A stretch of DNA of 64,000 bases from Mobula hypostoma (taxonomy: Eukaryota). Numbering within the stretch: the first letter of the stretch is position 1; the number at the start of each line of letters is the position of its first letter. Under the pieces are notes generated by a model. The model made no database searches. It was not told the DNA's origin and worked only from the letters and a program-made list of their open reading frames with translations. The stretch spans positions 118,918,001 to 118,982,000 of the forward strand of contig NC_086097.1 in the NCBI RefSeq assembly GCF_963921235.1, written 5' to 3'. Made by a program: the position numbers and the translations under genes. This document shows positions 21,715-60,362 of this stretch, piece by piece.

Positions 21715-22656
21715 ATGGGGGAGATAGTTAGAGCAGTGGTGTGCTCTGTATGCAGTATGTGGGAGGTCAGGGTCAACGCAGTTGTCCTTGATGACCACAC
21801 CTGCAGAAGGTGCATCCAGCTGCAGCTCCTATCAGAGCGAGTTAGGGAATTGGAGCTGGAGCTGGATGAACTACAGATCATTCGGGAGGCAGAGACAGAG
21901 ATAGATAAGAGTTATTGGGAGGTAGTCACACCGAAAAGACGGGAGGTAGGCAACTGGGTGACTGTCAGGAGATCGAGCGGGAGCAGGCAGAGACAGCACA
22001 GCACCCCTGTGGCCATTCCCATCAACAATAAGTATACCGTTTTGGATACTGTTGGTGGGGATGACCTACCAGGAACAAGTTGCAGTGGTCCTGTCTCTGG
22101 CACTGAAGTTGGACCCTCAACTCAGAAGGGGAGGAGGGAAGAGAGGACAGCGGTAGTGAAAGGGAATTCTATAGTCAGGGGGGCAGATAGGAGATTTTGT
22201 GGGGGAGATCGAGAGTCTCGGATGGTGTGTTGCCTCCCTGGTGCCGGGGTCCGGGACATTTCAGATCGGGTGCAGGTTATTCTCGAGAGGGAGGGCAAGA
22301 ATCCAGATGTTGTGGTCCATGTAGGGACCAACAACGTGGGTAGGAAGAGTGAGGGGGTCCTGCGTAGTGAGTTCAGGGAGTTAGGTGCGAAGGTGAAGGA
22401 CAGGACCTCCAGGGTAACAATCTCAGGATTGCTACCTGTGCCACGTGCGAGTGAGGCAAGGAACAGAAGGATTATACAGATCAATACATGGCTGAGAGGA
22501 TGGTGCAGGAGGGAGGACTTCAGGTTTTTAGATAATTGGGCTTTGTTCCAGGAAAGATGGGATATGTTCCGACGGGACCGTTTACACCTGAACTGGAGGG
22601 GTACTAACATTCTTGCAGGAAAGTTTGCTAGTGCTGCTTGGGGGGGTTTAAACTAA
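21715..22656 (+). CDS. CR1 ORF1p (Cys-rich N-terminus, coiled coil, SGNH esterase domain)
   Basis: Open 313-aa frame with CSVC...CRRC, GNSIVRG (normally GDS), HVGTNN and DRLHLN. Confidence 0.9.
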   Translation: MGEIVRAVVCSVCSMWEVRVNAVVLDDHTCRRCIQLQLLSERVRELELELDELQIIREAETEIDKSYWEVVTPKRREVGNWVTVRRSSGSRQRQHSTPVAIPINNKYTVLDTVGGDDLPGTSCSGPVSGTEVGPSTQKGRREERTAVVKGNSIVRGADRRFCGGDRESRMVCCLPGAGVRDISDRVQVILEREGKNPDVVVHVGTNNVGRKSEGVLRSEFRELGAKVKDRTSRVTISGLLPVPRASEARNRRIIQINTWLRGWCRREDFRFLDNWALFQERWDMFRRDRLHLNWRGTNILAGKFASAAWGGLN

Positions 22657-22959
22657 ATTTGCAGGGGGCAGGGATCCAGAATGTGAGAAAGGATAGCGAG
22701 ATGAAGTATAAAGGACAGGTGGGGACTACACGGTTCCGGAATATTAAGTGTGAAGTAGAGAAAGGTGAGGTGGAACGAGTGATAAGGCGGATACATGTGC
22801 AGAGGGATGGTCTGACAGAGCATGGAGTTAAATGTGCAGAAAGAGTAAGTAAATTTAAGAAGGACAACAAAATTCAAGGGGCGTATAGCCCGGTGAGAGT
22901 TCGGGGAGCTGGGTTATGCACAATAGGTAGCGATTTAAACAGAGAGAGGAGAAATGGGT

Positions 22960-25766
22960 TAAAAATTCTATATCTGAATGCACGAAGTGTCAGAAATAAG
23001 GCGGATGAGCTTGAAGCTCAGGTGCGAATGGGTAACTACGATGTTGTTGGGATAACGGAGACATGGCTGCAGGGGGATCAGACCTGGGAATTGAATGTAC
23101 AAGGGTATACGTGCTATTGAAGGGACAGAATGGTGGGCAGAGGGGGTGGGGTGGCCCTGTTGGTGAGGAATGAGATTCAGTCCCTTGCAAGGGGGGACAT
23201 AGAATCAGGAGAAGTAGAGTCAGTGTGGATAGAACTGAGGAACAGTAAGGGCAAAAAGACCCTAATAGGTGTTATCTACAGGCCCCCAAACAGTAGCATG
23301 GATATTGGGTGCAAGTTGAATAGGGAGTTAACAATGGCATGTGGCAAAGGAAATGTCGCAGTAGTTATGGGCGATTTCAACATGCAGGTGAACCGGGAAA
23401 ATCAGGTTGGTACTGGACCCCAGGATAGGGAGTTTGTAGAGTACCTACGGGATGCATTTTTGGAGCAGCTTGTATGAGAGCCGACCAGGGATAAGGCTAC
23501 TCTGGATTTAGTGTTGTGCAATGAACAGGATTTGATAAGTGATCTTGAAGTAAAGGAGCCATTAGGAGGTAGTGACCATAATATGATAAGTTTTTATCTG
23601 CAAGTTGAGAAGGATTAGGGCAGATCAGAAGTGTCAGTATTGCAGTTGAACAAAGGAGACTATGGAACCATGAGGGAGGAGCTGGCCAAGGTTGACTGGT
23701 TGGATATCCTAGCAGAAAAGACAGTGGAATAGCAATGGCAGGTATTCTTGGGAATAATGCACAAGGTGCAAAATCAGTTCATCCCCCGGAGAAGGAAGGA
23801 TTCAAAGGGGGGAAAGTGGCCACAGTGGTTGACAAAGGAAGTCAGAGATAGCATAGCATTAAAAAAGAAGTATAACAGAGCTAAGGTGAGTGGGAAGACG
23901 GATGATTGGGAAATTTTTAAGGAGCAACAGAACTTAACTAAAAAAGCAATACGGGGAGAAAAAATGAGGTATGAACGCAAGCTAGCTAGGAGTATAAAGG
24001 AGGATAGCAAAAGTTTTTTTAGGTATGTGAAGAGAAGGAAGATAGTGAAGAACGATGTCGAGCCCTCGAAGAATGAATTGGGAGAAATTGTTATGGGAAA
24101 CAGAGAAATGGCAGACGAATTTAATAAGTACTTTGGATCTGTCTTCACTAGGGAAGACAAAAGCAATCTCCCAGATGTATGGGTGGGCCAAGGACAAAGG
24201 GTAACAGAGGAACTGAAACACGTTGACATTAGGAAGGAAACGGTGATGAGTAGACTGATGGGACTGAAGGCTAACAAATCCCCAGGTCCAGATGGTCTGC
24301 ATCCTAGGGTACTAAAGGAGGTGGCTCTGGAAATTGTGGATGCATTGGTGATCATTTTCCAATGTTCCTTAGATTCAGGATCAGTTCCTGAGGATTGGCG
24401 AATGGCTAATGTTATCCCACTTTTTAAGAAAGGAGGGAAGGAGAAAACAGGGAACTATCGCCCTGTTAGCCTAACATCAGTAGTGGGGAAGATGCTAGAG
24501 TCCATTATTAAAGATGAAATAGCGACATATCTTGATAGCAGTGATACGATTGGGCCGAGCCAGCATGGATTTACCAAGGGCAATTCATGCTTGAATAATC
24601 TATTAGAGTTTCTCGAGGATGTAACCAGGAAGAAAGACGCGGGAGATCCAGTGGATGTGGTGTACCATGACTTTCAGAAGGCATTTGATAAGGTACCACA
24701 TAGGAGATTGGTGGGTAAAATCAGAGCTCATGGCATTGGGGGGAGGATTTTGACATGGATACAAAACTGGTTGGCAGATAGAAAGCAAAGGGTAGCAGTG
24801 AATGGGTGTTTCTCGGAATGGCAGGTGGTGACTGGTGGGGTGACACAGGGCTCAGTATTGGGACCACAGCTGTTTACGATTTACGTTAATGATTTAGAGG
24901 AAGGCATTGTGAATAACATCAGCAAGTTTGCTGATGATACTAAGCTGGGTGGCAGTGTGACATGTGATGAGGATGTTAGGAGAATTCAAGGTGACTTGGA
25001 TAGGCTGGGTGAGTGGACAGAAACTTGGCAGATGGCATTTAATGTGAATAAGTGTGAGGTTATTCACTTTGGGAGCAAGAACAGGAAGGCAGATTATTAT
25101 CTGAACGGTGTGGAGTTAGGTAAGGGAGAAATACAAAGAGATCTAGGAGTACTTGTTCATCAGTCTCTGAAGGTGAATGAGCAAATGCAGCAGGCAGTGA
25201 AGAAGGCTAATGGAATGTTGGCCTTTATTACAAAGAGAATGGAGTACAAGAGCAAGGAAATCCTTTTGCATTTGTACAGGGCCCTGGTGAGACCACACCT
25301 GGAGTATTGTGTGCAGTTTTGGTCTCCAGGGTTAAGGAAGGACATCCTGGCTGTGGAGGAGGTGCAGCGTAGGTTCACTAGGTTAATTCCTGGGATGTCC
25401 GGACTGTCTTACGCAGAGAGGTTAGAGAGACTGGGCTTGTACACGCTGGAATTAAGGAGATTGAGGGGGGATCTGATTGAGACATATAAGATTATTATGG
25501 GATTGGACAAGATAGAGGCAGGAAATATGTTCCAGATGCTGGGAGAGTCCAGTACCAGAGGGCATGGTTTAAGAATAAGGGGTAGATCATTTAGGACAGA
25601 GTTGAGGAGGAACTTCTTCTCCCAGAGAGTTGTGGAGGTGTGGAACGCGCTGCCTCAGAAGGCAGTGGAGGCCAATTCTCTGGATGCTTTCAAGAAGGAG
25701 CTAGATAGGTATCTTATGGATAGGGGAATCAAGGGTTATGGGGACAAGGCAGGAACTGGATATTGA
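22960..25766 (+). pseudogene. CR1 ORF2 (APE endonuclease plus reverse transcriptase) with premature stops in the endonuclease half; 23748..25766 still open
   Basis: Motifs YLNARS, GITETW, VIYRPP, MGDFN, NYRPVSLTS, DFQKAFDKV, QGSVLGP and FADD. Confidence 0.92.
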
Positions 25767-26008
25767 TAGTAAATGATCAGTGATGATCTCAGAATGGTGG
25801 TGCAGGCTCGAAGGGCCGAATGGTCTACTTCTGCACCTATTGTCTATTGTCTATTGTCTATTCTGTGTATGTTATTCTGCATTTCTAGCATCTTCAGAAT
25901 CTCTGATGTTTATGAATTAGCCTTGGCAAGTAAGATTGCAGATTCAAATTCATTTATTTATCACATGTACATTGAAACATACAATGAAAAGCATCATTTG
26001 TATTAACA

Positions 26009-43271: not shown

Positions 43272-43820
43272 TACTCAGTTGCAACTTTGTTAAATACACC
43301 TGTACACCTGCTCAGTGCAAAATTCTCATCATGTGGCAGAAACTCAATGCATAAGAGCAAGCAGACATGGTTAAGAGTTTGGACTGTTGTTCATACCAAA
43401 CAGCAGAATGGAGTAGAAATGGCAAGAATTGGAGCAGAATGGAGTTAAAAATAAACCAGGACTGCGTGTCCTCATAATCTAATCTAATCTAAAATGTGAC
43501 TTAAGTGATTTTGACCATGGAGCCAGGTGGAGTTCATTTGAGTTTCTTAGAAATTACTGATTTCCTGGAATTCTCACACACATCATTCTCTAGAGTTTGC
43601 AGAGAAGATATGAAATCAAAAAAAAAAATCATCCAGTGAATGCTAGTTGTACAGGCGACATGCCTTGTTAATGAGAGAGGTCAAAGAAGAATTGTCGGAC
43701 TGAATCAAGTTGACAGAAAGGCAATAGTAGCTCAAATAGCCAAACATGGTATGCAGAAGATTTCTGAAATCACATGTTGAACCTTGAAGGGGATGGGCTA
43801 CTGCAGAAGAAGACCACAAG
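43272..43820 (+). mobile_element. Tc1-like DNA transposon remnant
   Basis: Similar along its length to 44405-44992, including ccttgttaatgagagaggtcaaagaagaat. Confidence 0.6.
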
Positions 43821-44404: not shown

Positions 44405-44992
44405 ACACATTAACTAACCATTTTATTAGGTACGTCTGCACACCTCATCATTGATGAAAATATATAATCAGCCAATCATGTGGCAACAACTCAATACATA
44501 AAAGCATGCAGACAGCTTTGTGGGCTGAAGGGCCTGCAATGTGCTGTAGATTTTTCTATGTTATGATTAAGAGGTTCAGTTGTTTTTCACACCAAGCATC
44601 TGAATGGGGAGGAAATGTGACCAAAGTGACTTTAACTGTGGAATGTTTATTGGTGCTGCATGAAATGGTTTGAGTATCAAAGAAACTGCTGATTTCCTAC
44701 AATTTTCACTCTCAGCTGTCCCTAGAGTTTACAGAGAATGGTGTGAAACGAAAAGCGTCCAGTGAGTGACAGATCTGTGGGCAATAACACCTTGTTAATG
44801 AGAGAAGTCAAAAGAGAATGGTCAGAATGTTTCAAGCTGACAAGAATGCGACAGTAATCTAAATAAACACACACTCCACCAGTGGTGTGCAGAAGAGCAT
44901 CCCAGAATGCACAACATTTCAAACTTTGAAATTGATTGCGAACAGAAACAGAGGACCACGAACATACACACAGTGGCCACTTTGTGTAGGTC
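44405..44992 (+). mobile_element. Tc1-like DNA transposon remnant (transposase N-terminal HTH)
   Basis: Translates ...QKRMVRMFQADKNATV...GVQKSIPECTTFQTLKLI...RGPR, resembling a Tc1 transposase DNA-binding region. Confidence 0.65.
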
Positions 44993-45754: not shown

Positions 45755-45769
45755 GGATAGATATCAGTA

Positions 45770-46472
45770 TGTAGCCCCCCTGGCCAGCCTCAGGGTCGCT
45801 CGGCTCGCTGTCGTCTAGGGAAACAGCCCTCGGCCCTGCCAAACTGGGTAATTAGTTTGTGTGGCTGCTGTGTGATGCACCCCACCCTGCCCAAATAACA
45901 GACAATACACCAGATACGATCAAATGCTTTACAGTTTATTGATATTACTGGAACTATATAATTAACAGAGAGTAAAATATAAATGGAAAATAAAGGGCGC
46001 CACAATTATCAAAGTTCAATCTCTTCGTGCACAAACAGTTGGAGCTTAGGACCCTTCTTCTTCACCTGGCGACCCCTCGAACTACCTCAACCGGCCGTCT
46101 GGGACCAACAACGGTGGTCGACCAGACACTCCACACGAGTCTGTCTCCGTCTCCTCTCCTCGCTGAACGCCCCGCTCGGGGTCCGACCTCGTTAGTGGAC
46201 TTATAGCACCTGGTCCATCCTTTGTCTCTCTCTCCCGCCTTCTCCCCCAAAACCCCACGCAAACAATATCTTCAGACACACCAAAAGCATAACAATTATC
46301 GCAGTTGGTTCATTCGTAACGTCTTCTTATCACAGTCTAACCCAAAACAAGCTGCTAGCACAAGAACTTTCTCAGCGTTTAACATAACAAAGAAGCATTC
46401 CCAAGTATAACATAACAAAGAAGCCATTTTAATTAGCCTACACAGTAACATAAAAGACGAAACACCCTTACA
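45770..46472 (-). repeat. 3' LTR of element 2
   Basis: Direct repeat of 49286-49987. Confidence 0.95.
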
Positions 46473-46959
46473 CTCTCCCCCCTGCCAAACAAAGTCATGT
46501 CCTCATGACTTCCAAATAACTCGCTAACCAGTCCTGCAGACACACAACACACACAGTGACAGCGCCCCCCAAACAGTGGACCTTACGCCCGTCCCACGGG
46601 CGCTACATAGACCAACGTATCTGGGAGCTTCCTAATCCTCCGAGACATCCGTACCACCTCACCTAAACCCTAAAGGCTCAGACACTACTAGGGATACCTC
46701 GGGCCTGCCTGCCAACTCCTCTCTCACTCAGGCCACCATTACAGCTCAGAGCCCCCTGTCCCGTGTCCGGGGCCCCGCCTCTCCTCCTTCCTGATCCTGC
46801 CGTAACTCAGACTGCCCACAGCTAGCCCTCCCCACTACACCCGACTCAGTGGGAGAAGAGCCAAAGGTCTCTTCCTCAATCACGGGGAAGTTAGTGAAAG
46901 GCAGCATGTTCCACATGTGCAGCACATCATCCTTCGAATCCGTATCCTTCCTCATTCCC

Positions 46960-47775
46960 TCGATCGGTAGCTGCTATTTGAGTTTCTCCACACTGAAACA
47001 TTTAGCCGGGGCTACCCCTTCAGCCTCCTGCAGTCGAGACGTCAGCTTCTTCGGGGACTCCTTCAACTCTCGCCACAGCCTCAGCAGTTCTGACTCAGGG
47101 TTCCCGGCCATCTCAGTCTGGGATGCAGTTACCCCACCAGCTTCTTCCACCCTGACCTGAAAAGCAGCAGTTAAAGAACGTTCAGCCTCCGGTTGTTTCT
47201 TCCTGATGACGTCTTCCAGGTCAACTTTCAGTTTTTCCACTTCATTTAAACTGTTGATAGTCATCTTCAGATTCCTTTCAAGCGTCTGCCTCCCTTTTCG
47301 GAGATCTGCCCTCCATTTCTTCACCTCCTCGAGAGTGTAGTCAAACTCCCCTCCCTGGGCTCTCGGTTTTCTGTTGTCCCTAGTCAGAACACTTCCTTGA
47401 TCTTCCCCAACTTGTAAGTCTTCCAATCTTTTCTGGATCGACGTCTTGAGTTTCGCTGATCCCTTCGAAGGGGGGTCATTGTTTTGTCTCGCTGGATTAA
47501 TTCATCAGTACACGACCGCAGTGTCAGCTCGAATTCCGTTGCTCCTTCTCCACATTGACGACTGTGAATTCCAAGTCTGCAATGGTCGTCCCACAAGTGC
47601 GGCATTCAGTCTCCGGCCGGCATTTCTGAGCACTCAGTTCAGTGGTACAAATCCCCTCTCTCCCCTGTGTCTCATTCAGATTGACGACCTGGGTTTCCAT
47701 TCCCAGGTCCACCACCGTCTGCTCCAACACCAGGAAGTTCAATTGGTATGTTGGGTCATTTTTCTCACATTGCAC
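46960..47775 (-). pseudogene. Captured sarcomeric myosin heavy-chain rod fragment (MYH16/MYH7B-like), intron-less, frameshifted and internally deleted
   Basis: Consecutive peptides [102 protein letters not shown] and KKLTSRLQEAE..AKCFSVEKLK follow the order of the myosin II rod as I recall it. Confidence 0.82.
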
Positions 47776-47799
47776 CAAACTCCTCCGGCCAAAAACTCC

Positions 47800-49010
47800 T
47801 CCACATTTGACACTGTGCTTCTTTCGCCCAGGCTCAGCCACTCGCCTCACCTCATAGTCCCCCCAGGCGAATCCAAGCTCTAGGCGGTCATCCACATACG
47901 CCAAAACTCCACACACCTTCACTTCCCCCATGGTCTTCCTCATGCCCCGCAGGAAGGATGCAGGGGCTCCAGATATGCCCTTGGGCATCTTTTTGGATCG
48001 GAAGAATCCTAGGGAACTAATAACGGCCATCTTCTCCTCATCAGCTGCACTCCTCGGGATCTGGCAACATCCACTCCTCAGATCCCGCACATTAAACCAC
48101 GTTGCATAATCCGCGCACACGCTGCCTAGGTCTTCCACGGCGCCAGGGTCCAGTCACCGTGACCTCTCTCTCACTGAGGTGTCTTCAGCGGTCAAGTCCC
48201 CTCCCTTGTAGTAGTTCGGAGCTTCTACTAAGAGGGTCTCACCCTCAGCTACTTTCCCCAGACCGTACCACCGCTGGGTCTCGCTTAAATTTGGTACCGG
48301 CTCAAGGCTGCTACACACGTCCTCAGAAGCAACTCGACATGCTGGGTGCCCAGACAATGCCTCCATGAACTCCAGGGCCGTTGACCAATCATCGTCTTCT
48401 GGATAGCTACTGGCACTGGTACCCAAAATCTCCGGTGCCCTTGCGGTTTTCAAGGGTAAATGCTTCAGACACCGGTTGTAAAACGAACTGTACAACAACT
48501 TGACCTGCGCCCCGGGGTCGAGGATGGCTTTAGCATCGCTTCCCTCTATCCATAACAACACCCTGGGGCGTGGTCCCTCTAAGCCTTCAGGAATAGGGTC
48601 TTTTCCTTTTGGAAGTTCATTGGTACATTGCTGGGAACGTACTTCCCCAGAGACCCCAAGTCATTCCCCCACTGGGCCTCCGCTAAGTTTCTGGACACCT
48701 GTCTGATCAGCTGAACAACTGAAGGATGGGCTGATCCCCTGAAATGATCCCCCTAACACTGCAAGCAATTTAGCTGCCCTCCTAGCCAGAGAAGACACCC
48801 TTAAAACTTTCCCCCATCTTTAAAATAACTGACAGCTGTCACTACAGTGTAATTGAACATGACAACTCTAACACCGTCACCAGCCCGCCTACTTAAACTT
48901 TCAACCAGTCCCTGGCGCTCTCCCTCAACCGAGCACTGCCACTCAACTAACAACTGAGAGATCCGCTCCACCCATGTCTTGCATGCCTCCGCCCCTCTTG
49001 GGGTGGACAT
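47800..49010 (-). pseudogene. Abridged gag (PNMA-like), protease and RT remnants of element 2
   Basis: Gag: [28 protein letters not shown]. Protease: [25 protein letters not shown]...[12 protein letters not shown]...LAYVDD. Confidence 0.88.
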
Positions 49011-49262
49011 TATCCCAAACGCCAGGCAGAGTCTGCCAGAGCTAACATTTATTCGCAGACACTACCTCCAAATTAGACCACTCTTTCCTCTCTCTCCCAA
49101 CAGCATGGACAGCCCCGAGTTCCACCTCCGACTCGACAATGCCAGCCTGAACTCGAACAAAGACCTCACCCACCACGCATGCAGCAATAACCAGCAAACA
49201 TCCCACAGAGACACACATTACTGATTTAAACAGGGCCACCACACAGCATACCAGTAAATCCA

Positions 49263-49280
49263 ATCCCGGACAAAAGCCCA
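49263..49280 (-). promoter_or_regulatory. Primer-binding site, tRNA-Pro-like
   Basis: The minus strand reads TGGGCTTTTGTCCGGGAT, 5 nt inside the 5' LTR. Confidence 0.65.
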
Positions 49281-49285
49281 TACAA

Positions 49286-49987
49286 TGTAGCCCCCCGGCC
49301 AGCCTCAGGGTCGCTCGGCTCACTGTTGTCTAGGGAAACAGCCCTCGGCCCCGCCAAACTGGGTAATTAGTTTGTGTGGATGCTATGTGATGCACCCCAC
49401 CCCGCCCAAATAACAGACAATACACCAGATACGATCAAATGCTTTACAGTTTATAGATATTACTGGAACTATATAATTAATAGAGAATAAAATATAAAAG
49501 GAAAATAAAAGGCGCCACACTTATCAAAGTTCAATCTCTTCGTGCACAAACAGTTGGAGCTCAGGACCCTTCTTCTTCACCCTGCGACCCCTCAGACCAC
49601 CTCGACCGGCCACCTGGGACCAACAACGGTGGTCGACCAGACGCTCCACACGAGTCTGTCTCTGTCTCCTCTCCTCACCGAACGCCCCGCTCGGGGTCCG
49701 ACCCCGTTAGTGGACTTACAGCACCTGGTCCATCCTCTGTCTCTCTCTCCCGCCTTCTGCCCCAAAACCCTGTGCATACAATATCTTCAGACACACCAAA
49801 AGCATAACAACTATCGCAATTGGTTCATTCGTAACATCTTCTCATCACAGTCTAACCCAAAACAAGCTGCTAGCGCAAGAACTTTCTCAGCGTTTAACAT
49901 AACAAAGAAGCATTCCCAAGTATAACATAACAAAGAAGCCATTTTAATTAGCCTACGCAGTAACATAAAAGACGAAACTACCTTACA
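49286..49987 (-). repeat. 5' LTR of element 2
   Basis: Direct repeat of 45770-46472. Confidence 0.95.
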
Positions 49988-51984
49988 AGTAAAATTGACA
50001 GAGTGAAAAAAAAATTTACAAGGATGTTGCCAAGACTTGCGTTTGAATAAGTTAGGACTTTATTCCTGGGAGTGTAGGATAATGAGGTGAGATTTGATAG
50101 AGGAATATAAAATTATGAAGGATATAGATAAGGTAAAATCAAGCAGGCATTTTCCACTGAGGCTGAGTGAGACAAGAACTAGAGATAATGGGTTAAGGGT
50201 GAAAGATGAAACATTGAAGAGGAAAATGAGGGGAAACCTCTTCACTCAGAGGGTGCTGAGAAATTTGGAAATGCACATGAATGGGCTGGGATGTTCAGAA
50301 TCAGAATCAAAATCAGAATCAGCTTTAGTATCACTGGCATATGTGGTGGAATTTGTTGTTATGCAGCAGCGGTACAATGCAATACATAAAAAAAAAACAA
50401 ATTACAGTAATAAGTATATATGCATATTCTTTAAGAAGTTAAATTAAATAAGTAGTGTAAAAAGAGGAAAAAATGTAGTGAGGTAGTGTTCATGCATTTA
50501 ACGTCCATTCAGAAATCTGATGGCAGAGGGGAAGAAATTGTTCCTGCATCCAGGTGCAGCTCAATGGGACTAGGCAGAATAATAGTTTGGTATGGATTAG
50601 ATGGGCTGAAGGGCCTGTTACTATGTTGTTGTGCTCTATGACTATAATTCAAAGTAAAGGCCCATTATCTCAGTGTTACGGTTAAAGGTAACATGTTATC
50701 TTTAGATTCAAAGGAACAATTCTAAATCATTATTAAAGAGAGTAGTTTGCATCTTTGATGTGGTGACAGTTTAAATTTGTCCAGTTGAATGTGTAAGTAT
50801 ACAGACATTGGACAGTCCCAACTTTATTACTTCCTTATGGCAGACGCCACACAAGATAAAAATAATTCAATGTCTGCTAACAAGACAGTCAGTCATTGAA
50901 GCATATTGTCTCTCTCCAGTATTCTGAGGTAATTATGCATCAGATGATCAAGCTATCAAGGAATGTTTGCTGAAACAGAAACTTGTAGCGAATCTTAGCA
51001 TGCATGATTCATTGCAGATTGCCTGACTGGGATATGGCAGCTACTTTTCAATTTGGGAAAATGTATTTCCATGTCAACCGACTTGCTGTTTTCAATAAAA
51101 AAAAATAGAGCTTTTACAAAACAGATGGAAAATGGGCCATCTGTTTATAAGTGACAAGATTGGAAAAGGAGAATCATTTCCTTGAAAAAAATCTTCCAAC
51201 ACTGTGTTGAATATATTTTCTATTAAAGTTTAGTTACATAAATGAAGTAAGAAAAGGTTTCTTCTTTTGCATGCGCCAACTCTGAAGCATATATGTCAGC
51301 GCAACCATCTGGATAAAGGCATTTCTTTTTGTGTGAAGTCATTTATTGTGAAATTAAATTCCATTCTTTGAACTTCCAGTGAGTCTTTTTTCAAATGTTA
51401 TTTCCCATGAGCACAAGACTTCAGTAGCAGTTTCCACCTGACAGTGCAGCACTGACTGAATGTCCTTCATTATTGAGTCTTTCTTATTGTAACCGTCAGG
51501 GTACGCACCACAACTTGCAAAGAAACATTTCTTCATCATCTGACTGTCAACTGGTGGCCTCTTGTGCCTCAAAGGATGTGACATGCCATGAGAAAAGCCT
51601 CTGGGACTCTTTATGAATCTGACATGTAGCACTTGATGCTGTGCTTAAAGAGATTTCAGTCGAAGGGCACAATATTCTCCAAAGAAAACAGTCCCTTCAC
51701 TGTCTATTTCACATCAAAGTCGATGTTGTATTAGGTGATATTGCTTCAACCTGGATATCTTCATTGGCACTTGCCACCCTATATAAAAAAAACTTTCTTA
51801 GTGATTTTGTTAACATTTCAAAGCAAACATTTCTTTCATCCAAGTGGAACAAAACACTCTATGATCTGATTCTTAATTTCTTATAATGTAGCTTTTCCTT
51901 AGTTTGCTATCAATAGATTTTCTATTCTATTAAAGTGTTAGTGTGATGTTAGTATTGTGACCAATGGAAAAGCCAGCAAAATGA

Positions 51985-57966: not shown

Positions 57967-60362
57967 ACATAGAACATAGAACATAGAACATAGAATAGTA
58001 CAGCACAGTACAGGCCATTCGGCCCACAATGTTGTGCCGACCCTCAAACACTGCATCCCATATAAGCCCCCAACTTAAATTCCTCCATATACTTGTCTAG
58101 TAGTCTCTTAAACTTCACGAGTGTATCTGCCTCCACCACTGACTCAGGCAGTGCATTCCACGCACCAACTACTCTCTGAGTAAAAAAACCTTCCTCTAAT
58201 ATCCCCCTTGGACTTCCCACCCCTTACCTTAAAGCCATGTCCTCTTATATTGAGCAGTGGTGTCCTGAGGAAGAGGCGCTGGCTATCCACTCTATCTATT
58301 CCTCTTATTATCTTGTACACCTCTATCATGTCTCCTCTCATCCTCCTTCTCTCCAAAGAGTAAAGCCCTAGCTCCCTTAATCTCTGATCATAATGCATAC
58401 TCTCTAAACCAGGCAGCATCCTGGTAAATCTCCTCTGTACCCTTTCCAATGTTTCCACATCCTTCCTGAGTGAGGCGACCAGAACTGGACACAGTACTCC
58501 AAGTGTGGCCTAACCAGAGTTTTATAGAGCTGCATCATTACATCGCGACTCTTAAACTCTATCCCTCGACTTATGAAAGCTAACACCACATAAGCTTTCT
58601 TAACTACCCTATCCACCTGTGAGGCAACTATCAGGGAGCTGTGGACATGTACCCCCAGATCCCTCCGCTCCTCCACACTACCAAGTATCCTGCCATTTAC
58701 TTTGTACTCTGCCTTGGAGTTTGTCCTTCCAAAGTGTACCACCTCACACTTCTCCGGGTTGAACTCCATCTGCCACTTCTCAGCCCACTTCTGCATCCTA
58801 TCAATGTCTCTCTGCAATCTTTGACAATCCTCTACACTATCTACAATACCACCAACCTTTGTGTCGTTTGCAAACTTGCCAACCCACCCTTCCACCCCCA
58901 CATCCAGGTCATTAATAAAAATCACGAAAAGTAGAGGTCCCAGAACAGATCCTTGTGGGACACCACTAGTCACAACCCTCCAATCTGAATGTACTCCCTC
59001 CACCACGACCCTCTGCCTTCGGCAGGCAAGCCAATTCTGAATCCACCTGGCCAAACTTCCCTGGATTCCATGCCTTCTGACTTTCTGAATAAGCCTACCG
59101 TGTGGAACCTTGTCAAATGCCTTACTAAAATCCATATAGATCACATCCACTGCACTACCCTCATCTATATGCCTGGTCACCTCCTCAAAGAACTCTATCA
59201 GGCTTTTTAGACATGATCTGTCCTTCACAAAGCCATGCTGACTGTCCCTGATCAGACCATGATTCTCTAAATGCCCAGAGATCCTATCTCTAAGAATCTT
59301 TTCCAACAGCTTTCCCACCACAGATGTAAGGCTCACTGGTTTATAATTATCCGGACTATCCCTACTACCTTTTTTGAACAAGGGGACAACATTCCTCTCC
59401 CTCCAATCCTCCGGTACCATTCTCATGGGTAACGAGGACATAAAGATCGTAGCCAGAGGCTCAGCAATCTCTTCCCTCGTCTCGTGGAGCAGGCTGGGGA
59501 ATATTCTGTCAGGCCCGGGGACTTATCCGTCCTAATGTATTTTAACAACTCCAACACTTCCTCTCCCTTAATATCAACATGCTCCAGAACACCAACCTCA
59601 CTCATATTATCATCCTCTCCATCATCAAGTTCCCTCTCATTGCTGAATACCGAAGAGAAGTATTCATTGAGGACCTCGCTCACTTCCACAGCCTCCAGGA
59701 ACATCTTCCTACCTTTATCTATAATCGGTCCTACCTTCACTCCTGTCATCCTTTTTTTCTTCACATAATTGAGGAATACCTTGGGGTTTTCCTTTACCCT
59801 ACTCGCCAAGGCCTTCTCATGCCCCCTTCCTGCTCTTCTCAGCCCCTTCTTAATCTCCTTTCTTGCTTCTCTATATTCCTCAATAGACCCATCTGATCCC
59901 TGCTTCCTAAACCTCATGTATGCTGCCTTCTTCCACCTGACTAGATTTTCCACCTCACTTGTCACCCATGGTTCCTTCACCCTACCATTCTTTATCTTCC
60001 TCACCGGGACAAATTTATCCCTAACATCCTGCAAGAGATCTCTAAACATCGACCACATGTCTATAGTACTTTTCCCTGCAAAAACATCATTCTAATTCAC
60101 ATCTGCAAGTTCTAGCCTTATAGCCTCATAATTTGCCCTTCCCCAATTAAAAATTTTCCTGTCCTCTCTGATTCTATCTTTTTCCATGATAATGCTAAAG
60201 GCCAGGGAGCGGTGGTCACTCTCCCCCAGATGCTCATTCACTGAGATCTGTGACCTGACTTGATTTGTTACCTAGTACTAGATCTAGTATGGCATTCTCC
60301 CTAGTTGGCCTATCCACATGCTGTGACAGGAATCTGTCCTGGACACACTTAACAAACTCTTC
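57967..60362 (-). mobile_element. Fairly young 5'-truncated CR1 LINE (ORF2 with frameshifts), (CATAGAA)n tail
   Basis: ORFs 59423..60058, 58404..59441 (YMDFSKAFDKVPH, GVPQGSVLGP, FANDTK) and 58144..58458. Confidence 0.93.

Follow-up and report, generated by a model that had tools for sequence, protein, structure and literature searches.

The 64,000-nucleotide stretch analysed here (contig NC_086097.1 of the ray Mobula hypostoma, positions 118,918,001 to 118,982,000 of the forward strand; hereafter the window) contains on its minus strand, at 45770-49987, a long terminal repeat (LTR) element of 4218 base pairs (bp). It very probably belongs, as a decayed copy, to a family of non-autonomous LTR retrotransposons of Ty3/Gypsy type that carries a myosin cargo in the place of its integrase. 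Alignment to exons of the host and phmmer against the Protein Data Bank (PDB) showed that the cargo (46968-47713, minus strand) copies the rod of a host myosin-II heavy chain, without introns and with internal deletions.

An LTR element and what it lost

The two LTRs (45769-46472 against 49285-49987) are 94.0% identical over 704 nucleotides (nt) by blastn. The 3' LTR occupies 45770-46472 (703 bp, with TG...CA ends) and the 5' LTR 49286-49987, both placed by blastn and by reading their ends. A target-site duplication, AGTA, stands on either side at 45766-45769 and 49988-49991, and a polypurine tract (PPT), GGCAGGGGGGAGAG on the element's strand, was read beside the 3' LTR at 46473-46486; across 168 nt of the PPT and the LTR start, the identity to an autonomous relative is 74%. 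Together with the remnants of gag and of the reverse transcriptase (RT), this bears out the LTR-bounded, Gypsy-type element proposed in the initial annotation of this DNA. The internal part comes to 2813 bp, far too short for a full gag-pol.

Read along the minus strand from the 5' LTR, the first part to be recognized is a gag fragment of PNMA or Ty3-gag-like type (48801-49061; Pfam PNMA, E 2.1e-6, 27.7 bits, cut-off 25). The region between gag and RT (48154-48660), taken from the list of open reading frames (ORFs), had no match in Pfam; its position and the protease-like motif LDPGA, which in a sister copy reads LDTGS, suggest that it is the protease. A truncated RT follows (47797-48153), with fingers and palm to just past the YVDD motif at 47887-47898, and it scores below threshold in Pfam (RVT_1, E 5.2e-4, 20.2 bits, cut-off 29.6). 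Next to it lies a 30-residue remnant of RNase H (47707-47796), which BLASTP relates to the RNase H of the autonomous element L065 (53% over 30 amino acids (aa), E 2e-6) and of the sister copy L062 (55% over 29 aa, E 8e-8), and which has a few bases of microhomology in common with the beginning of the cargo, where the two overlap. The block 'QEKNDL', initially read as myosin, belongs to this remnant, and the myosin begins after it, near 47713, and not straight after YVDD as had been supposed.

Three stop-to-stop frames cross this part of the minus strand (47524-48153, 47384-47605 and 46974-47501). All three had been listed at the outset, with the ends of the first and third slightly off, and the first does hold the YVDD motif and continues past it without a stop. 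The cargo of the window copy is interrupted by one stop and two frame changes. Beyond it, at 46598-46967, lies a frame-shifted remnant of the pol C-terminal tail, which in autonomous relatives follows the integrase. Within this remnant, 46839-46967 matches the C-terminal region of L065 pol (44%, E 8.5e-8, tblastx), and 46598-46660 (EVVRMSRRIRKLPDTLVYVAP) aligns to the final pol residues, EEVQRPQRTRHPPERLIYIAP, of the autonomous L068. The peptide VVRMSRRIRKLPDTL at 46598-46660 had been rightly named as the pol C-terminus, but the tail sets in directly after the myosin, at about 46967, and not first at 46610-46660.

What the myosin took the place of can be seen from L062 and from the autonomous relative L065/L068, whose order is RNase H, Integrase_H2C2, rve and C-terminal tail. 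In L062 the RT connection is still there, and so is a complete RNase H (Pfam RT_RNaseH, E 2.7e-11), which ends ...YRPGSYNIDVDV with the myosin directly after it, and the first part of the autonomous tail (...RRDTSSEDDDSDVWYLFPLADSLVPGEETPGPSITESG) aligns directly after the cargo, in L062 at E 2.3e-11 and in the window as given above. Because RNase H is intact before the myosin and the tail match follows after it, the myosin replaced the integrase exactly and in frame. The integrase was thus all that the ancestor gave up. The RT thumb and the bulk of RNase H disappeared later, in the window subfamily, where one deletion starts in the RT palm and reaches into RNase H, and a second joins RNase H to the cargo with the loss of about its first 17 codons. 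Of the proposal that myosin stands in place of both RNase H and integrase, the integrase part holds; RNase H was lost later.

Direct LTRs, TG...CA ends, the short duplication and, from the window plus its relatives, the domain order protease, RT, RNase H, integrase are those of a Ty3/Gypsy element. The window copy has no integrase, its RT stops after the palm and its RNase H is down to 30 residues, which makes it a non-autonomous derivative of such an element. The autonomous relative itself (L065:2300-4500, L068:1-420; C76:3025700-3028320) contains more than 2 kb of tandem repeats, with the unit GLGEGVAEPPVFQP, inside the C-terminal part of pol; this array is open in all three forward frames, and the non-autonomous family is without it.

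The myosin cargo and its source gene

Residues 16-107 of the third frame match residues 997-1088 of MYH7 (phmmer against PDB, E 4.6e-5), and weaker collinear blocks are found at about 1145-1182 and 1380-1418 of the same protein. At the nucleotide level the cargo of the window is 77-82% identical over three host exons of 68-176 nt (47713-47538, 77%; 47343-47200, 80%; 47119-47052, 82%) and agrees with a fourth at 30 of 32 nt (47149-47118), and this match to a host myosin gene puts the likeness far beyond chance. The ORF of the sister copy L061 matches full-length myosins at E 4e-20 in a library of 5.8 billion proteins. The sarcomeric myosin rod first seen in the third ORF is thus confirmed, and its blocks are collinear; they are not consecutive, as had been thought, but separated in the window lineage by deletions of ~9, ~42 and ~210 residues relative to the rod. 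The peptides quoted at that time (LETTLAKTEKEK, LKMTIDNLNEMERSKLDLEEVVKK and others) were myosin strings, from which the window differs, for example with LKMTINSLNEVEKLKVDLEDVIRKK.

Exons of the gene that gave rise to the cargo were found on contig C68 at 14524966-14525196, 14612355-14612504, 14615492-14615596, 14663720-14663815 and 14666485-14666748; GT donors are readable after three of them, and CAG or AAG on the acceptor side. Copies L061, L062 and L064 are 89-97% identical in nucleotides to three C68 exons. Two exons adjoin exactly in the sister copies where the host has an intron of ~3 kb, two adjoin in the window copy with 2.7 kb between them in the host, and the 87 kb of host DNA between the first and second exons listed above correspond to ~190 nt in the element. 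The lack of introns noted initially is thereby confirmed, and with the host introns gone the cargo appears to derive from a spliced RNA. The words EEAGGVTASQ and KRESELLRL are common to the cargo and the C68 gene and are missing from the MYH16 orthologue of the host on contig C36. By these matches the source is a multi-exon, MYH16-related paralogue among the myosin-II heavy chains, at about 14.40-14.67 Mb of C68.

The relation to MYH16 was also seen in trees, from both of which TE_L063 was omitted. All 10 cargo-type rows, among them the Narcine protein P0127, form one clade (support 100/99-100), which joins the MYH16-type myosins at 100/98 and stands apart from the MYH1, 2, 6, 7, 7B and 15 types. 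When P0127 was used as a query, 33 of the 42 best full-length matches were named myosin-16 or myosin-16-like (103-112 bits), followed by a lamprey protein at 93 bits and by myosin-7 and fast myosins at 88 bits or less. P0127 had been placed in the trees as element cargo, a reading that was given up: its first 80 residues match two upstream C68 exons, 79 kb apart, at 72-79%, and P0127 is best read as the orthologue of the source gene. It follows that the family is not documented in electric rays.

Other candidates for the source were considered and rejected. The MYH16 orthologue on C36 is 74% identical to MYH16 of Callorhinchus and is its sister at 99/96, and the cargo is no closer to it (33-55%, 11 rows) than to other MYH16 proteins. 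The likeness to MYH16 proposed initially is therefore correct as far as the relationship goes, and the source is the paralogue on C68 and not the orthologue. The sarcomeric cluster at C68:15.3-15.9 Mb was set aside in favour of the gene at C68:14.4-14.67 Mb. The host myosin loci found first, by a genome search with PF01576, are 28-46% identical to a sarcomeric myosin, that is, of non-muscle type, and tblastx, tblastn and phmmer gave no significant match between them and the cargo.

These searches also revealed something of the myosin content of the genome. The cluster at C68:15.30-15.90 Mb is a tandem array of about 10 sarcomeric myosin heavy-chain genes, in which one large rod exon, 69-78% identical to a turtle myosin, recurs at 15310213, 15388036, 15463321, 15536489, 15617583, 15711039, 15827865 and 15892409; single myosin genes lie at C2:160.90-160.94 Mb and C40:17.15 Mb. 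A piece of a source exon is matched as well by C149:137393-137479 as by C68:14612427-14612513 (93% over 29 residues); the source gene may have been duplicated there, or C149 may represent another haplotype. An intronless fragment of myosin rod at C1:34554219-34554694, with an internal deletion of its own, is 83% identical to a piece of L062 and 68-76% identical to positions 230-302 and 506-546 of the turtle rod, which adjoin here; either one more subfamily of the cargo or a retrocopy made from the source gene could account for it. Another intronless match, at C18:48745314-48746731, covers positions 514-993 of Myosin_tail_1 with six stops. Its identity to a sarcomeric myosin is 29%, and a myosin of non-muscle type probably gave rise to it as a processed pseudogene.

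Copies in Mobula and in other rays

The genome of the window (3.48 Gb) was searched at the DNA level with 46960-47560 as the query. There were 828 first-look candidates, and 40 were scored. All 40 span most or all of the query, 36 of them almost its full length. They include the window itself; the remaining 39 are all 93-95% identical to its cargo. Most of 30 fetched loci align to the window element over ~3.3 kb, from gag to the 3' LTR, at 88-92%. The window subfamily has at least several hundred copies, in keeping with the initial idea that a non-autonomous family had spread the cargo.

A search with a turtle myosin rod recovered the window family as an unbroken match to positions 34-209 (31-36%, E 1e-13 to 1e-17), frequently stop-free, along with a handful of intronless matches at 44-51%, four of which were fetched. 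With a 64-residue piece of L062 as the query, nine of 150 scored matches, the query included, span 61-64 residues at 61-100% identity; a few dozen are of an intermediate type and the remainder are of the window type. The less-deleted forms are rare, and the window form is the amplified one. A variant with a deletion of 120 nt (window 47524-47643), in which 47523 is joined to 47644, was seen in contigs of three of four runs, their kind being uncertain, and the Mobula proteins P0001, P0128 and P0274 are without the same 40 residues.

Relatives are present among the predicted proteins of other rays. A word-indexed search found proteins of Mobula birostris at 89% and 75% identity and one of Hypanus sabinus at 58%, which the annotation calls 'putative uncharacterized protein MYH16 isoform X2'. 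In PDB, the first hundred residues of the Hypanus protein (P0003), which correspond to the truncated RT of the window, match Ty3 RT (E 9e-9), and a later part matches MYH7 999-1110 (E 3.5e-10); for one Mobula protein the MYH7 match is uninterrupted over 912-1088 (E 5e-9). An exhaustive protein search with the ORF of a sister copy returned 221 proteins at E <= 1e-3, the best nine being short ORFs. When eight of the best short ORFs were looked up, seven came from Mobula hypostoma, M. birostris, Hypanus sabinus and Hemitrygon akajei, and the eighth was P0127 of Narcine. Outside Myliobatiformes no element-borne copy is documented. Gene prediction in Mobula and Hypanus yields fusion ORFs of 328-432 aa, and public annotation (NCBI) gives fusion ORFs of these rays such names as 'myosin-16-like', 'myosin heavy chain, striated muscle-like' or 'myosin heavy chain, cardiac muscle isoform-like'; the seeding of myosin-like retrocopies that had been foreseen can be recognized in these gene models.

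Outside the element, an 84-nt direct repeat, 75% identical between 43663-43746 and 44790-44873, probably comes from another interspersed repeat. The GC skew is -0.27 to -0.30 over the element (46001-50000), +0.35 to +0.40 at 22001-26000 and -0.41 at 58001-60000; the latter two stretches may be further strand-biased repeats.

Capture, fate of the frame and known parallels

In L061 and L062, pol runs to base -1 and the host exon follows from base +1, its first base (exon at 14524969). The first discriminating base is +4, and pol and exon share ~12 nt of imperfect microhomology, GAG.GG.AGAGT. A junction at an exon limit is as would be expected from a read-through transcript spliced into that exon; the microhomology instead fits a template switch by RT. 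The pol side of the junction in L065 has no GT donor. The initial annotation was right that the element carries an intron-free piece of a muscle-type host myosin; as for the template switching that it invoked, read-through splicing also fits the 5' junction. In the ancestor, the part of pol coding for integrase, which lies between the end of RNase H and the short C-terminal tail, would have been swapped in frame for a spliced cDNA piece of the rod of a host class-II myosin, starting at the first base of one rod exon and extending over ~570 or more codons, with either read-through splicing or a template switch at the microhomology as a possible route. The same 3' junction peptide is found in all cargo lineages seen, and a single capture is probable because all copies share this junction and form one tree clade with the source-gene orthologue.

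Several subfamilies would then have arisen by deletions at short repeated words. In the numbering of the typed rod of P0276, the window and Hypanus lineages have lost residues ~229-270 and ~297-508, and the L061 lineage has lost ~243-521; the deletion ends lie at words such as LEEA and LEET. Exon skipping was rejected as their cause, the ends being off the exon limits of the MYH16 orthologue. The window subfamily would supply at most Gag, possibly with the protease, and would borrow RT, RNase H and integrase from autonomous relatives. Such relatives abound: a first look for RNase H gave 188,434 candidates, whose frames extend to as much as 1714 aa. This abundance and the missing enzymes point to helper dependence and mobilisation in trans.

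Several points weigh against this account. The window ORF had no match to Pfam Myosin_tail_1 (PF01576) at E <= 1, and none of five other element-borne ORFs matched it at E <= 0.01; the filtering of coiled-coil bias probably contributes to this, and the cargo was for this reason filed as derived from a myosin gene and not as a myosin-tail protein. The source gene was read from seven of its exons. In the trees the cargo clade branches off, on a long stem (0.49), outside the crown gnathostome MYH16 proteins, and the exact affinity of the paralogue is drawn from few sequences and could reflect long-branch attraction. The closest autonomous element examined, only ~74% similar at the PPT and LTR start and ~70% in RNase H, is too distant to be named as the true helper, and mobilisation in trans is presumed. 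The proteins of the other species are gene models, whose architecture may include predicted introns.

The missing profile match, a best PDB E-value of only 4.6e-5 for the window ORF and initial exon-level searches against myosin loci that came back empty would all suit a generic coiled coil, native to the pol of this Gypsy lineage and only convergent on myosin. That explanation is refuted by the nucleotide identity of the sister copies and of the window to three exons of one host gene, and the autonomous relative has an integrase at this place and no coiled coil; the match of the L061 ORF to full-length myosins speaks in the same sense. A retrocopy inserted into one already integrated element, the alternative named in the initial annotation, is refuted as firmly: nothing was found in its favour, the same segment is present in all 39 scored non-self copies and the flanks are alike on both sides in most of the 30 loci. 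Somewhat less remote, though still improbable, is that the myosin was acquired at the DNA level, for instance by recombination with, or insertion next to, an existing processed pseudogene. The absence of introns would be equally expected, other intronless myosin fragments are present in the genome (those on C18 and C1 described above), and the microhomology at the 5' junction also fits DNA repair. However, no more than 4 nt separate this junction from the beginning of an exon, a position that a random break would hit, by our estimate, in ~5% of cases; moreover, the frame of pol is kept at both junctions, and no remnant of a poly(A) or of a target duplication was seen between the cargo and the pol tail. 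Capture of a spliced RNA is thus the reading preferred here.

After its capture, the cargo looks like a neutrally evolving passenger. The mean p-distance of 30 copies to the host exons is 0.193 and that among the copies is 0.070; as had been noted early on, the distance of the cargo to its source (0.19) exceeds that between the two LTRs (0.06). When the window family is compared with the host, the three codon positions differ about equally often (847, 792 and 703), and the ratio of nonsynonymous to synonymous changes (dN/dS) is 0.77 in frame against 0.70 and 0.98 in shifted frames. For the L061 lineage it is 0.46 in frame, which is not below one shifted control at 0.44, and between subfamilies it is 0.45 against 0.48 and 1.00 in shifted frames, with per-position differences of 0.213, 0.177 and 0.238. 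Neither dN/dS nor codon position gave a signal of protein-level constraint beyond the shifted-frame controls; the cargo was read as a passenger on these grounds, and for the RT-coiled-coil fusion that had been suggested these tests gave no sign of selection.

The open frames hint weakly at a different fate. The longest sense frame over the cargo measures 114-677 aa in the 30 loci, and in four of them (442-677 aa) it runs from YxDD through the myosin into the tail or to its edge, so that the master had one continuous frame; among the scored genome matches some copies have cargo frames of 495-824 aa. Over ~137 cargo codons, 22 of 30 copies are stop-free, compared with 7-9% in neutral simulations from the host codons at p = 0.15-0.17, an excess that hints weakly at selection for an open frame. 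It is conceivable on this ground, yet unlikely, that the rod is a working part of a Gag-PR-RT-(RNase H)-coiled-coil polyprotein, in which it would replace the multimerisation of integrase or aid entry into helper particles and so explain the success of the family. The swap was made in frame, the pol tail stays in the same frame in open copies, and the predicted fusion ORFs of Mobula and Hypanus are in line with such a role. Against it stand the flat codon positions and the dN/dS values just given, the fact that different subfamilies deleted different parts of the rod, and the size of the stop-free excess, which reaches just P ~0.07-0.09 for the part tested. In an equally speculative form, the myosin coiled coil may underlie the success of the element by zipping the truncated polyprotein or the RNA into the particles of relatives, or by multimerising in place of the integrase. 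If so, copies with the cargo would have a packaging advantage, and the frame would be kept open while the sequence drifts, as heptads allow.

The locus represents a clean capture of a host gene by a non-retroviral LTR retrotransposon in a vertebrate, and with the source gene in the same genome, both junctions and the decay that came afterwards are legible to the single base. Through its 5' junction, placed where an exon starts, the classical model of oncogene capture is brought to a Gypsy element. Hundreds of myosin-like ORFs have been planted in the genome, where gene-prediction pipelines take them for myosin genes, and the myosin names on element ORFs in public annotation put counts of the myosin gene family in rays at risk.

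A specific source gene, the loss of its introns and propagation with the element through shared junctions place the cargo among transduced host genes. The kind of capture is known, from Bs1 and from retroviral oncogenes, and the family itself was not found in print: the full-text literature searched, with most subscription journals, Repbase and Dfam outside its scope, contained no report of it or of a myosin-carrying LTR element. Like processed pseudogenes, its cargo copies are intron-free copies of host mRNA scattered in the genome, but none is free-standing: each is enclosed in an LTR element, with RNase H on one side and the pol tail on the other, and is multiplied along with it. LARD and TRIM elements are likewise bounded by LTRs, have lost their pol functions and are amplified in trans by autonomous relatives; their internal sequence is non-coding or of unknown kind, whereas the ray element has remnants of gag and pol and a cargo that can be traced to the host.

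A closer parallel is offered by the acute transforming retroviruses. The model for the capture of oncogenes by retroviruses involves read-through or splicing, followed by a non-homologous switch of RT. In these viruses, as in the ray element, an intron-free host cargo is fused in frame, with the 5' junction at an exon boundary and a 3' junction without obvious homology, and replication genes are lost so that a helper is needed. The ray element differs in having no env and no sign of an infectious cycle, and it is endogenous and highly amplified in the germ line; its cargo is a structural coiled coil that confers no growth advantage and for which no selection was detected.

Among LTR retrotransposons, the comparison is with Bs1 of maize, which, according to PMC13317346, has transduced pieces of host genes, the plasma-membrane H+-ATPase and others. 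Like Bs1 as described there, the ray element carries host fragments inside the LTR unit in a hybrid reading frame, has no full pol and would depend on a helper. Bs1 is described there as a low-copy plant element with three separate transductions (PMC13317346), whereas the ray element would have made one capture, in a vertebrate Ty3/Gypsy lineage. Unlike Bs1, the ray element had its integrase replaced exactly and in frame by a cargo whose source is known exon by exon, and it has reached at least hundreds of copies in several deletion subfamilies.

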